Virus record (IMG/VR): IMGVR_UViG_2541047432_000013
Location: 1-4,202 of that record
DNA length: 4,202 bases
From: a virus
Taxonomy: Duplodnaviria; Heunggongvirae; Uroviricota; Caudoviricetes
Strand: one strand, 5' to 3'
Positions 1-4,195 of this stretch are shown piece by piece (position 1 is the first letter of the stretch; the number at the start of each line of letters is the position of its first letter). A model generated the notes under the pieces. That model worked only from the letters and a program-made list of their open reading frames with translations, had not been told where the DNA came from and made no database searches. Made by a program: the position numbers and the translations under genes.

Positions 1-116
1 GTCTGGCCGGTTCGGATTCGTACCTCGCAGAGGTCTTTCCTCGTTACCAGTGCCGTCACTATGACGGTTAAACAGATGACGATCAGGGCGATTAACATCG
101 CCTTTTGCTGCTTCAT
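1..116 (-). CDS. hokD: Hok/Gef-family type I toxin (small membrane-depolarising peptide); N-terminal 38 codons present, 3' end runs off the window start
   Basis: Minus-strand ATG at 116-114 translates to MKQQKAMLIALIVICLTVIVTALVTRKDLCEVRIRTGQT..., the Hok/Gef signature (hydrophobic TM segment then conserved RKDLCE). It matches HokD/RelF as I recall it; family call is firm, paralog call is from memory. AGGAG lies 9-10 nt upstream of the ATG. Confidence 0.85.
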   Translation of the reverse strand, partial: MKQQKAMLIALIVICLTVIVTALVTRKDLCEVRIRTGQ

Positions 117-173
117 AGCCTGCTTCTCCTTGCCTTTCGGCACGTAAGAGGCTAACCTACATGTGTTCAGCAT
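1..173 (-). CDS. mok-like overlapping regulatory ORF (in-frame 19-codon N-terminal extension of hok), partial
   Basis: In-frame upstream ATG at 173-171 gives MLNTCRLASYVPKGKEKQA before the Hok Met. The MLNTCR start resembles chromosomal Mok proteins (MokC, from memory). GAGG lies 8 nt upstream. No alternative-frame ORF with a start codon overlaps hok. Confidence 0.5.
   Translation of the reverse strand, partial: MLNTCRLASYVPKGKEKQAMKQQKAMLIALIVICLTVIVTALVTRKDLCEVRIRTGQ
130..158 (+). promoter_or_regulatory. Candidate sigma70 promoter for a Sok-like antisense RNA
   Basis: TTGCCT (130-135), 17-bp spacer, TAACCT (153-158) on the plus strand, antisense to the mok translation initiation region. 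The -10 is weak; this is a prediction only. Confidence 0.3.
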
Positions 174-243
174 GGATTGAGCCTCAGATTAATGTTAAGC
201 GTCTTGCAGGACGCGTAATGTTAACTGGGGCTTTTCTCTATCT
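165..243 (+). ncRNA. Predicted Sok-like antisense RNA covering the mok SD and start codon, ending in a terminator-like structure
   Basis: Plus-strand region complementary to the mok SD and ATG. Outer stem GCCTCAG (181-187) pairs with CTGGGGC (225-231) including one G-U pair; inner stem GCGTC/GACGC (199-214); then T-rich tract TTTTCTCTATCT (232-243). Ends are approximate. Confidence 0.3.
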
Positions 244-291
244 GCCGTTGGTGTTCATGCCCGAGGCAGATAGCCTCAAGCACCCGCAGCA

Positions 292-406: not shown

Positions 407-964
407 TCATTGATTCACCTCCTGCGGCGGTTCTGGTAGCGACATCCAGTGGGTTGCTTGCCTAAGATCATTACCCGGACTAACTGCTATACCTCCGCGC
501 CGGAACGTGCCTCCGAGATAGCGTGCGGAATATATTAATGGCCCAGCCTCGCTATCGATATTCATCGAAATAAGCACGTTCTGGCTCTTTTCAGGCATTC
601 GCTCAGTACAGCTTATCCAGCCATCCAGAGTTATCGGAGATCTGGTTGACGTTTCCGAGATTTCCCGAAAATTGTTGGTTGACGAATTCTTATTTTCCCG
701 AAAGTTTCCGGCCTGAAGCATGGCGACGCGGCAGGCGTTCCAGCCATCAGCATATGTTTTAGTTACACCGTCGAGATGGCAGGTAAGCAAATCCATTTCA
801 TCAGGCACTACCATTGCTATCGGCTCTGCTTCCAGTGATGCCAGCGCGATACGAAACACATTAGCCAGCAGGCTGTCTGAAGACTTGTTATCGTGCGCCG
901 AGTCGCTCAGGAAGCCTGTGATGTATGATTTAATCTCCGCGCGTTCTCTGGTAATAGTGCTCAT
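407..964 (-). CDS. Phage protein with C-terminal DUF551-type domain (function unknown) and a distinct N-terminal region
   Basis: 185-aa ORF, ATG at 964 with AAGGA 8 nt upstream. C-terminus DGWISCTERMPEK...ATHWMSLPEPPQ matches the DUF551 hallmark (THWMPLPEPP) as I recall it. Its start lies 1 nt after the stop of the upstream ORF (TGATATG). Confidence 0.75.
   Translation of the reverse strand: MSTITRERAEIKSYITGFLSDSAHDNKSSDSLLANVFRIALASLEAEPIAMVVPDEMDLLTCHLDGVTKTYADGWNACRVAMLQAGNFRENKNSSTNNFREISETSTRSPITLDGWISCTERMPEKSQNVLISMNIDSEAGPLIYSARYLGGTFRRGGIAVSPGNDLRQATHWMSLPEPPQEVNQ
644..709. repeat. Imperfect 33-bp tandem duplication inside the DUF551 gene, encoding an 11-aa tandem linker repeat
   Basis: Unit 1 (644-676) GGTTGACGTTTCCGAGATTTCCCGAAAATTGTT and unit 2 (677-709) GGTTGACGAATTCTTATTTTCCCGAAAGTTTCC. 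They encode NFRENKNSSTN / NFREISETSTR on the minus strand. Near-palindromic TTTCCCGAAA cores. Confidence 0.7.
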
Positions 965-965
965 A

Positions 966-1184
966 TCAGTTTTCCTTATACGGATTAATTTTATTGTGCA
1001 GTGCGCTGAATGATTCCCATGTCACATCGGTATATAGCTCAATAACTGGTTCAAATGTCCTTCCAATTATCCAGACCAGTAATAGCGGGGATATCGGTAT
1101 CATCAACACTATAAACAGAATGAAAAACAGAAACTCTGTTGTTCTGCTCTTTCGTGGGTAATTTTTTTCTAAATAATGTTTCAT
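966..1184 (-). CDS. Small single-pass membrane protein (72 aa), AT-rich moron-like gene
   Basis: ATG at 1184. One predicted TM helix (FLFFILFIVLMIPISPLLLVWIIG) after a basic N-terminus (KNYPRKSR). About 35% GC by hand count versus roughly 55-60% in the replication genes. Confidence 0.6.
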   Translation of the reverse strand: MKHYLEKNYPRKSRTTEFLFFILFIVLMIPISPLLLVWIIGRTFEPVIELYTDVTWESFSALHNKINPYKEN

Positions 1185-1212
1185 TTCTTACCGCCCTTTC
1201 GGGCGGCCTCCT
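1185..1212 (-). promoter_or_regulatory. SD - GC hairpin - start codon arrangement upstream of the membrane-protein gene
   Basis: Minus strand reads AGGAGG-CCGCCC-GAAA-GGGCGG-TAAGAA-ATG: a perfect 6-bp GC stem with GAAA tetraloop sits between a consensus SD and the ATG. Linear spacing is 22 nt, about 6 nt if the hairpin folds. Confidence 0.45.
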
Positions 1213-1311
1213 GATGTTCTGAGGGTGCAGGAATCCCTCCGGTTAAGGATTTAATAAAAATCGTTTCTGATTTAAATCTTCAGTATTTAGTTGTTAGTTG
1301 GTTTATCGCCT

Positions 1312-1623
1312 TTATGCTTCAGCCTTATTTCGCAACCAGACACAAACCGGGCCATCTTCCGTATCATGAATGGAACCAATAAACCAGCCATCGCCCTCTG
1401 GTCGTTCCGGTTCCCATGCAGAAATATCAGCATCACACGCATCAAGGTCAGCACATCCTTCATCTCTGAAGCAGAGGACGTATTGAAGATTATTTTCCTC
1501 CATCCAGGCGTTAAACTCTTCCGTTGAAATATATTCCCGACCATCACAGAATTTTTCATATTCAGGATGCGTCCAGCAGCCATATTCATTACGTTCCACT
1601 GGCATTTCTTTAATTACGCTCAT
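1312..1623 (-). CDS. Highly acidic small phage protein (103 aa), function unknown
   Basis: ATG at 1623 with GGGGG 3 nt upstream. ATGA overlap with the stop of the upstream ORF. 16 Glu + 9 Asp versus 8 Lys/Arg (hand count), 5 Trp, 6 Cys. Confidence 0.7.
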   Translation of the reverse strand: MSVIKEMPVERNEYGCWTHPEYEKFCDGREYISTEEFNAWMEENNLQYVLCFRDEGCADLDACDADISAWEPERPEGDGWFIGSIHDTEDGPVCVWLRNKAEA

Positions 1624-3147: not shown

Positions 3148-3810
3148 TCAAATAAAACCAGCTGCCTTCCGGCGTTCGTATTCCTGTTTCAGCCGTTCAA
3201 TTGGCGTTGGCCCTTGCGGGTGTTTCGCCCCTTCCAGTTGTCGTCGCACTGGCGGAACACTCATCCCGTTACCAACATGCTTTGCCCATTTCGTCAGTTG
3301 CCGTTCCGCAAGTCGTTTTAACTCACCTTGCGTCATCTGGCGCTCAATCCCTCTGGTACGCATTTCGAGGCAGATGTGGTACAGCACAGGCTGTGGCCAC
3401 GGGTATTTATCACTCCCGTCGTATCGCCAGGATTCATTGCGCCAGCGCCGGTACTCTTCCATCACGGCATCCACCGTAAGACCAAATGGATTTGCCCCAC
3501 TCTCCGAAATCAGCGCAACAAACTCAGCCAGGTCCGGGGGCCACGTTTCACCCGCCCGGCAGCGGTCCATGCACTGACGGCACACCAGACGGATTTGCTG
3601 TTCAGTCATCGCACCAATCTGGGCAATCCAGAGCTTCGAAGGTGCGGCCCCGTTCTTCTGAGTCCAGCGGTTCGAATACACCTCCCCCATGAGCTCCCAC
3701 AGCTTCCAGGCCGTTTCCGTTGCTGATAAATCCGTTGTCACGTTCCCACTGTTCGCGTGCAGCCCGGATTTCCTGAACTGCCCGTGATGCCGTGCCACCT
3801 GATGCTGCAT
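3148..3810 (-). CDS. Lambda P-like replication protein (replicative helicase loader); start codon uncertain
   Basis: Resembles lambda P as I recall it: TWPPDLAEFVALI versus PFLPSPGQFVAWC, and YPWPQPVLYHICLEMRTRGIERQMTQGELKRLAERQL versus YPWKSNAHYWLVTNLYQNMRANALTDAELRRKAADEL. ATG 3810 has a G-rich SD; alternative ATG at 3690 has GGGAG 3 nt upstream. Confidence 0.8.
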   Translation of the reverse strand: MQHQVARHHGQFRKSGLHANSGNVTTDLSATETAWKLWELMGEVYSNRWTQKNGAAPSKLWIAQIGAMTEQQIRLVCRQCMDRCRAGETWPPDLAEFVALISESGANPFGLTVDAVMEEYRRWRNESWRYDGSDKYPWPQPVLYHICLEMRTRGIERQMTQGELKRLAERQLTKWAKHVGNGMSVPPVRRQLEGAKHPQGPTPIERLKQEYERRKAAGFI

Positions 3811-4195
3811 GGCTTCCCCCCTTGCTGACTGGTTTTACCTGTGCCCTGACGTGCTGCACGTGGCGGGCAAATTTCTGCTCCCACTGAACCTGCGTGAAAA
3901 CCTTCCCCTCCGCCATCCAGTAATCCCGGAATGCGGCAAGCTCAGCAGGTGTAAATTCCGGCTCAGGCAGAGCCATACCCCACACTGCTGCCCGTTGTCG
4001 AAAATCCGGCGACGGCTGCCAGACAGTAGTCATCGAAAATTTCCCGATCGGTTCGCTCAGGCCGTCCAGGTATTCAGGTTCGGCTGTCTGCAACGGCGCG
4101 TCATTCGACTCACTGGTCGTAGTACTCTCGCGCGCGTTATGTGTGGGGTTTAATTCTTTATCTGTATCTGTATCTGTCGTGATTTGTCGTGACAT
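3602..4195 (-). CDS. DnaT-domain replication-initiator-like protein (phi80/Gifsy-type replication protein); 5' end may extend beyond the window
   Basis: GKFSMTTVWQPSPDFRQRAAVWGMALPEPEFTPAELAAFRDYWMAEGKVFTQVQWEQKFARHV matches the E. coli DnaT C-terminal domain ([29 protein letters not shown]...[23 protein letters not shown], recalled). Frame is open from ATG 4195 to the window end, so the true start cannot be fixed. Confidence 0.8.
   Translation of the reverse strand: MSRQITTDTDTDKELNPTHNARESTTTSESNDAPLQTAEPEYLDGLSEPIGKFSMTTVWQPSPDFRQRAAVWGMALPEPEFTPAELAAFRDYWMAEGKVFTQVQWEQKFARHVQHVRAQVKPVSKGGSHAASGGTASRAVQEIRAAREQWERDNGFISNGNGLEAVGAHGGGVFEPLDSEERGRTFEALDCPDWCDD
4160..4192. repeat. Short tandem repeats at the 5' end of the DnaT-like ORF
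   Basis: ATCTGT x3 (4160-4177) followed by GTCGTGA x2 at 10-bp spacing (4176-4182, 4186-4192). Encodes (TD)3 on the minus strand. Confidence 0.6.

Follow-up and report, generated by a model that had tools for sequence, protein, structure and literature searches.

The minus-strand open reading frame (ORF) at positions 966-1184 of the window, by which we mean the whole 4,202-nucleotide stretch analysed, encodes a member of DUF4014, an already catalogued protein family, and nothing is new in the identity of the gene. Its low GC content is a stable property of the family that arises mostly from amino-acid composition, and the gene is an optional, shuffled cassette with fixed boundaries inside early operons. 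The overall best explanation of DUF4014, to which we assign a probability of roughly 0.55, is an early-operon membrane modulator or inhibitor of N-in/C-out topology, which would act by binding a partner and not as a pore-forming toxin. In the window, the gene belongs to the delayed-early (nin-like) operon of a STEC prophage of Rac-like type, with the replication module on one side and hok/sok on the other. The features of this region are listed below, with the evidence for each in brackets.

407-964, minus strand: downstream DUF551/EaA-type gene of 185 aa, the commonest but not an obligatory neighbour (Pfam DUF551)
962-968, minus strand: TGA-T-ATG junction, consisting of the DUF4014 stop, one base and the start of the next gene (sequence)
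966-1184, minus strand: coding sequence of the DUF4014 family protein, 72 aa plus TGA stop (ORF list, Pfam, PHROG, identity to WP_000683609.1, dN/dS)
978-1001, minus strand: C-terminal motif LHNK(I/L)NPY, codons 62-69, predicted to be periplasmic (invariant columns)
1065-1133, minus strand: predicted transmembrane helix, codons 18-40, with invariant F24, L27 and P30, the last at a kink (hydropathy, AlphaFold2, family alignment)
1134-1160, minus strand: basic juxtamembrane motif YPRxSRxxE, codons 9-17, predicted to be cytoplasmic (near-invariant columns, charge bias)
1162-1168, minus strand: A7 homopolymer, codons 6-8 (GAA AAA AAT), intact here (sequence)
1185-1255, minus strand: conserved non-coding leader of about 70 nt that heads different cargo genes (alignment, genome matches)
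1190-1207, minus strand: GC hairpin GCCGCCC-GAAA-GGGCGGT between the Shine-Dalgarno sequence and the ATG (minimum-free-energy and centroid folds)
1207-1212, minus strand: Shine-Dalgarno sequence AGGAGG (sequence; invariant in the alignment)
1221-1239, minus strand: upstream leader hairpin GAGGG-N9-CCCTC (minimum-free-energy and centroid folds; conserved in the alignment)
1312-1623, minus strand: upstream accessory gene of 103 aa, PHROG 1372, at the end of the preceding early-operon block (ORF list, PHROG)

The ORF list gave a minus-strand frame with an ATG start, 72 codons and a TGA stop. Its product was matched by Pfam DUF4014 (PF13198) at 87.2 bits, against a cut-off of 23.2 bits, with residues 1-72 placed on positions 1-72 of the 72-position model, and by PHROG 1832 over positions 1-72 of 72 (E = 1.1e-44, 151.5 bits). 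It is identical to RefSeq WP_000683609.1, a "DUF4014 family protein" from a Rac-like prophage of E. coli O157:H7 EDL933. Compared with the members of DUF4014/PHROG 1832, it has the same length, the same motifs and the same kind of genomic position, with no difference of substance. An NCBIfam search with the protein returned no match, and no family of PADLOC-DB v2, which comprises models of known anti-phage defence, was found at E <= 1. Pairwise dN/dS values of 0.13-0.42 among DUF4014 homologs reflect purifying selection, and in the sense (minus-strand) frame second codon positions are the most conserved, with 22% of substitutions. Because of the full-length Pfam and PHROG matches, these dN/dS values and the conservation of second positions, the ORF is, as judged from sequence comparison, a real gene and not a chance frame.

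That the real gene is instead the antisense ORF at 994-1161(+) is barely credible. This 55-aa frame matches phrog_20982 (E = 2e-20) and is open in most DUF4014 homologs, and older records of Stx phages carry two overlapping hypothetical proteins annotated at this site. The antisense and sense frames, however, have their wobble position in common, and in the antisense frame the second codon position is more variable than the first (36% versus 22% of substitutions). Moreover, the antisense ORF starts with TTG and is broken in epsilon15 and g341c, whereas the sense frame has curated family matches and a dN/dS below 0.45. On these grounds the antisense ORF was rejected as a shadow frame, and the substitution pattern already contradicts it.

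DUF4014 is a narrow family restricted to phages of Enterobacteriaceae. When 1.84 billion representative proteins were searched exhaustively with a profile, only 24 clusters at 50% identity emerged, many of which are fusions or fragments. Homologs were found in 127 phage records, comprising 933W-type Stx phages, epsilon15, the P22-like phages epsilon34, ES18 and g341c, and the P1-like D6; named members are 933W L0067, epsilon15 gp46, epsilon34 gp27 and ES18 gp39. The window protein is 47-76% identical to the phage members, and 50% identical to epsilon15 gp46 over the full length. An identical protein is encoded on at least 999 contigs, and the exact allele is present in about 500 E. coli genomes, mostly STEC (O157, O145, O111 and O121). 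The gene is an accessory one, and to that extent the sequence-only reading is supported. It is variably present: 1024 (19%) of the 5426 complete E. coli genomes carry a DUF4014 ORF, with up to six copies per genome, and it is missing from a sister O157 prophage. Accordingly, uniform conservation without a compositional anomaly was not seen, as presence is variable and composition is anomalous. A literature search with DUF4014, PF13198, L0067 and legacy names retrieved no paper on any family member, and the RefSeq/PHROG label "released from the phage upon host infection" had no traceable source in that search.

The earlier description of the product as a 72-aa single-pass membrane protein with a basic N-terminus was borne out by the ORF list, hydropathy and charge. 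The protein has a single hydrophobic stretch at residues ~18-40, with a Kyte-Doolittle 19-mer peak of 2.9. In the window protein, the N-terminus carries a net charge of +3 and the C-flank is net negative; across the family, the respective values are +3.8 and -1.9. AlphaFold2 calculations with a 23-sequence alignment produced a model with a mean pLDDT of 80 and helices at residues 14-28 and 31-66, separated by a kink at P30. From the charge bias of the family and these predicted helices, we infer an N-in/C-out topology. The C-terminal helix is modestly amphipathic, with a muH of 0.30 that 5.5% of shuffles attain. A structure search against the PDB and BFVD gave no match to DUF4014, as expected of a simple helical protein.

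Conservation across the family is sequence-specific. The residues YPRxSRxxE, P30, G41, E45 and LHNKxNPY are all found in the window protein and are invariant or nearly so across 22 diverse members. G41 follows immediately after transmembrane codons 18-40, and E45 and Y51 are further invariant residues of the alignment. Within the C-terminal motif, L62, H63, N64, K65, N67, P68 and Y69 are invariant in the homologs from E. coli, Salmonella, epsilon15, g341c, 933W and D6.

The GC content of the ORF was computed to be 35.6% (GC1 0.37, GC2 0.30 and GC3 0.40), compared with a window mean of 49.8%, and 0.3% of 219-nt segments are as low. The sequence-only reading had estimated about 35% by hand, which proved accurate, but the contrast that it drew with neighbouring genes was overstated: the adjoining DUF551 gene and 103-aa gene (orf103) have 50% and 45% GC, respectively, and the P and DnaT-like genes, at ~56%, are located 2 kb away. 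In the remaining small accessory genes of this block, GC is 41-43%. Phe, Ile, Leu, Lys, Asn and Tyr are abundant in the protein. Its amino-acid composition, taken together with the codon usage of the neighbours, leads one to expect a GC content of 39.6-41.0%, so that composition accounts for ~70% of the 14 points separating the ORF from the window mean. The rest is a modest AT bias at synonymous sites, which is likewise present in other small accessory genes of the block, as the observed GC of orf62, orf74 and orf103 is below expectation. Furthermore, all DUF4014 homologs are low in GC, with 36-41% in local backgrounds of 45-53%. The proposal of a recent acquisition is not supported, since a low GC content that is family-wide and derives for ~70% from amino-acid composition is no sign of it.

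In EDL933, the gene stands between a 103-aa gene annotated as hypothetical and the DUF551 gene. The cro/ydaT/DnaT-like/P replication module precedes this group, and hok and the region of the Q-type antiterminator follow it. The hok/sok locus is encoded at the left end of the window, with an Rfam match to sok at 111-285, ~700 bp from DUF4014. DUF4014 occupies the PR-side nin-like region of Rac-like prophages, but the PL-side ea region of 933W and of P22-like phages. In all five phage types in which the family was found, it is located in the early or accessory region and, in the contexts examined, never in a lysis cassette, and the holin and endolysin of epsilon15 are encoded away from gp46.

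The boundaries of the cassette are tight. The TGA-N-ATG junction is found in 71 of 74 related loci regardless of the downstream gene, which is of DUF551/EaA type (39 loci), an HNH endonuclease (~25) or an 87-aa ORF (7). This variation ruled out an obligatory DUF4014-DUF551 pair. Gaps to the neighbouring genes are 1 nt on both sides in 933W and 1 and 3 nt in epsilon15, and in g341c the gene overlaps the upstream one by 4 nt. A consensus scan of the minus strand over 966-1311 returned no sigma-70-like promoter, although non-sigma-70 sites, or weak ones in the 127-nt leader region, could escape it, and no intrinsic terminator was found there. In a sister prophage of O157:H7 PV15-279, the same upstream genes and leader are present without DUF4014, and the leader directly heads an EaA-like gene. 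The window is itself a mosaic, as positions 1200-2420 match, at 95.6%, an O157 prophage other than the one that carries the identical DUF4014.

The A7 homopolymer near the start of the gene is a frameshift hotspot. Among viral contigs, the window allele has an intact A7 in 26 and is frameshifted by A6 in 6 (6/32), the A6 product being 24 aa long. Alleles with an interrupted A tract are frameshifted in 0 of 33. A6 occurs once on a haplotype represented by 19 A7 copies, and a small, separate clade has it too, so that at least two independent A7-to-A6 events must have taken place on the window allele. A8 variants were not seen among the viral contigs examined. The many 54-aa "partial" DUF4014 proteins in databases are due to this frameshift. 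On the evidence of these alleles, the A7-to-A6 change is a recurrent loss of function in prophages, which fits poorly with a gene kept for the benefit of the lysogen; a harmful product or weak on/off switching is possibly behind the A6 alleles. A second allele, which has A7 in 15 contigs and A6 in 19 (19/34), adds further A7-to-A6 events.

The mechanism that we favour would run as follows. DUF4014 would be transcribed with the early operon upon infection or induction and translated from the strong AGGAGG, which the conserved GC hairpin would bring to ~6 nt from the ATG. The protein would then be inserted into the inner membrane, its basic N-terminus facing the cytoplasm and its last ~30 residues exposed to the periplasm. 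There it may bind a conserved enterobacterial envelope protein through YPRxSRxxE, the proline-kinked helix and the LHNKxNPY tail. The conservation pattern is the basis for this step, and such a partner is probably bound. The resulting role would be that of a small membrane-anchored modulator or inhibitor, comparable with those small membrane proteins of phages by which envelope functions are changed or superinfection is prevented.

Two alternatives bear on whom the product would benefit or harm. The sequence-only reading had called the gene a moron and a candidate host-fitness or defence gene. In its classical form, this account entails autonomous transcription, recent acquisition and expression from the repressed prophage, with protection of the lysogen by superinfection exclusion or abortive infection. 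It draws on the compositional anomaly of the ORF, on presence or absence between closely related prophages and on a small single-pass membrane architecture, which is that of the known exclusion proteins HK97 gp15 and T4 Imm. We nevertheless consider it unlikely. In the strict sense the term moron does not apply, given the outcome of the promoter and terminator scan, a stop 1 nt before the next ATG and the virtual lack of intergenic space in 933W, epsilon15 and g341c, where the gaps to both neighbours are 0-3 nt. The low GC is family-wide and mostly compositional, and PADLOC gave no match. A lysogen-protecting moron is further disfavoured because of the early lytic operon location in every phage type and because of recurrent inactivation, as the persistence of A7-to-A6 loss-of-function alleles in prophages is unexpected for a gene that benefits the lysogen. 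The same frameshifts could instead reflect counter-selection against a harmful product, as would be the case for a small Hok-like, holin-like or Kil-like toxin that damages the inner membrane. The short, hydrophobic nature of the protein and its distance of ~700 bp from hok/sok would be in keeping with such a toxin, which we regard as very doubtful. Neither HOK_GEF nor any other toxin family was matched in Pfam, NCBIfam or PADLOC. A pore-forming toxin is disfavoured because invariant polar motifs outside the membrane are atypical of pore-forming peptides, because genomes contain up to 6 copies, with the exact protein on very many contigs, because the only antisense RNA found with Rfam is sok, which belongs to hok and is not cognate to DUF4014, and because the gene lies outside lysis cassettes.

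A third alternative gives the partner a name, in that DUF4014 would inhibit an O-acetyltransferase of the AT3 family acting on O-antigen or another envelope polysaccharide, and thus be a stand-alone serotype-conversion or receptor-masking factor. Its origin is in nomenclature: g341c gene 23 and some E. coli proteins at NCBI are called "O-polysaccharide acetyltransferase inhibitor" or "sugar acetyltransferase inhibitor", and these legacy names trace to an older name of epsilon15 gp46 (NP_848254). Two inhibitors were proposed, though "not investigated" (PMC9558356), and the predicted periplasm-facing tail would suit inhibition of a membrane acyltransferase. In addition, the N-terminal half of DUF4014 weakly resembles epsilon15 gp28 (PRKS..E.LF.I...W), with an hhalign probability of 58% over 31 columns. 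The HMM score of 6.8 bits for this similarity was, however, reached by 133 of 2000 segment-preserving shuffles, and hence is not significant, and by 18 of 2000 full shuffles. The gp28 family, with 4 members, is too small for a profile. The resemblance is a lead and not evidence. Homology to gp46 shows common family membership and not function, and the current curated epsilon15 record restricts conversion to gp21, gp22 and gp28, with the inhibitor name gone from gp46. Moreover, g341c has its own O-acetyltransferase gene adjoining that of the supposed inhibitor, and DUF4014 occurs across a wide range of E. coli serotypes, a single genome having up to 6 copies. Overall, acetyltransferase inhibition is possible, but improbable as the actual function. 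A bolder version of the membrane-modulator reading, for which we see only slim chances, holds that DUF4014 inhibits a conserved enterobacterial envelope enzyme, under the control of the A7 tract as a switch. Candidate targets are a phage-entry factor or an AT3 acyltransferase whose substrate is O-antigen or enterobacterial common antigen. If so, many STEC and Salmonella prophages would carry a hidden surface-conversion or exclusion function, which A7 slippage would turn off and possibly on.

Morons of lambdoid phages, such as HK97 gp15, are autonomous extra genes within phage operons. DUF4014 resembles them as a small membrane protein of atypical composition with patchy presence among relatives, but it has no detected promoter or terminator and is part of an early operon and not of the late region. 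It shares with the prophage-encoded Hok/Gef peptides small size, hydrophobicity, membrane localisation and the same region, but differs in being longer, in its conserved polar motifs and in having neither a HOK_GEF match nor a cognate antisense RNA among the hits. Closer in size are the alpha-polymerase inhibitor gp21 and the "transacetylase repressor" gp28 of epsilon15 as well as Iap of the Pseudomonas phage D3, which are all, like DUF4014, phage-encoded, membrane-embedded proteins of 60-72 aa. In epsilon15, gp21 and gp28 are encoded close to the tailspike, lysis or integrase regions, whereas gp46 is among early accessory genes, and no sequence similarity was detected between DUF4014 and the Iap-type gp21 (hhalign probability 0.2%). 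Small membrane proteins of serotype-converting phages are thought to bind host envelope enzymes, and the Gnarl proteins are stand-alone phage accessory proteins of 40-90 aa that alter the O-antigen or cell surface (PMC12373910). The Gnarl genes originate from Mu and lytic phages, and the binding partner of Gnarl3 is the cytoplasmic GalU (PMC12373910); they provide a conceptual precedent for a possible role of DUF4014. The supplements of the 196-gene accessory-gene screen in the same study (PMC12373910) contain no DUF4014 sequence.

If an envelope target were proven, a defined role in surface conversion, in exclusion or in disturbing a membrane defence would account for a prophage cargo of wide reach: the gene is present in about one in five complete E. 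coli genomes, reaches up to six copies in STEC strains and is also carried by Stx-converting phages. For annotation, the locus teaches that low GC in the gene of a tiny membrane protein is no proof of recent acquisition, and that a gene can be optional without being an autonomous moron. The arrangement of Shine-Dalgarno sequence, hairpin and ATG in a leader with interchangeable cargo, together with the A7 hotspot, represents small features of cargo expression and loss.

Within this leader, which precedes the gene in Rac-like prophages, the AGGAGG is separated from the ATG by 22 nt in linear sequence and by ~6 nt with the hairpin formed. The hairpin ends 5 nt from the ATG, and TAAGAA stands between the 6-bp core stem and the start codon. 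The 93-nt leader folds with a z-score of -2.4. Among 119 viral contigs, pairing was kept through G.U in 12 of 14 instances of stem variants, and compensatory double changes in the stem were absent. Hairpin-bridged ribosome-binding sites are known from T4 genes 38 and 25, in which, as here, a strong Shine-Dalgarno sequence ~22 nt from the start is brought to an effective spacing of ~6 nt by a stable hairpin. By analogy, translation of DUF4014 may depend on such bridging, which is in this case deduced from the sequence, with a stem that lacks compensatory covariation. A genome-wide scan for the leader hairpin returned mostly chance GC-rich hairpins from unrelated phyla, and the relevant matches were limited to Shigella and Citrobacter. 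The possibility that 1185-1255 is a 3' remnant of a DUF7167 gene, raised by an open frame ending in ATGA, was rejected because the frame lacks a start codon and because the UMNK88 match is located upstream of the DUF7167 start. The leader instead heads the DUF7167 gene in UMNK88 and S. flexneri, and on its own it matches many E. coli genomes without DUF4014, at 93-97% identity.

By its sequence, the window is mosaic: its DUF4014 region (900–1320) was 100% identical to one prophage of E. coli O157:H7 PV15-279, located near 2.17 Mb, and the adjoining block, 1200–2420, gave a 95.6% match to another prophage in that genome, located near 2.70 Mb. Coverage of more than 80% of the window at a single place was found in no complete E. 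coli genome of the collection searched. Immediately upstream of the DUF4014 gene lies the following element:

1185–1255, minus strand: conserved non-coding leader of ~70 nt, with, in order, AGGAGG, a GAAA-looped GC hairpin, and ATG

The cargo gene behind this leader differs by prophage, being DUF4014 in the window, DUF7167 in UMNK88 and S. flexneri, and an EaA-like gene in the sister O157 prophage. The leader may mark a mosaic boundary, and it may act as a hairpin-bridged ribosome-binding site. Downstream of DUF4014, the DUF551 protein (407–964, minus strand) was compared with its positional counterpart in the sister prophage, a protein of 187 aa (L153 1419–1982), with which it shares only one central segment, AMLQAGNFRENK.SSTNNFR.ISETST.SP; as judged from this comparison, the DUF551 protein is itself mosaic. 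Just downstream of its gene, positions 1–285 hold a type I toxin-antitoxin locus, composed of:

111–285, minus strand: sok antisense RNA (Rfam RF01794, 113.5 bits)
1–116, minus strand: 3' part of the hok/gef toxin coding sequence

Two features were located within the DUF4014 gene:

1162–1168, minus strand: A7 tract in codons 6–8, a recurrent A7-to-A6 frameshift hotspot
994–1161, plus strand: shadow ORF antisense to DUF4014, matching PHROG 20982 (E = 2e-20)

Frameshifted DUF4014 was present in 25 of the 66 contigs with an uninterrupted tract, compared with none of the 33 in which the tract is interrupted. The A7-to-A6 changes arose independently at least three times, and no A8 variant was seen among the contigs compared. 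As for the shadow ORF, PHROG 20982 was probably assembled from antisense ORFs that older annotations of Stx phages had called in error. The product of DUF4014 homologs is named 'released from the phage upon host infection' in RefSeq viral records (e.g. L002 4001–4219 and epsilon15 gp46) and in PHROG 1832, whereas GenBank names the same genes 'hypothetical protein'; a search for the origin of the former name found no source.

Two proteins of other phages were considered:

L007 2483–2938: orf103 of the P1-like phage D6, an in-frame fusion of DUF4014 and the downstream gene (151 aa)
L011 14345–14527: epsilon15 gp28, a 60-aa membrane protein named 'serotype conversion: transacetylase repressor'

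The junction in orf103, ...AAAGAAACTGATATG..., has 1 base fewer than the usual AAC TGA T ATG, and the fusion is either natural or a sequencing error. The pattern PRKS..E.LF.I...W is common to gp28 and the N-terminal half of DUF4014, a match that is not statistically secure.

At the far end of the window, mechanical ORF calling gave:

3148–3810, minus strand: replication protein P
3602–4195, minus strand: DnaT-like ORF

These overlap by 209 nt (3602–3810, minus strand). In the annotation of O157:H7 strain EDL933, the P gene spans 462 bp (153 aa), starts at the equivalent of approximately position 3609 and shares only 8 nt with the DnaT-like gene, so the 209-nt overlap is an ORF-calling artefact.
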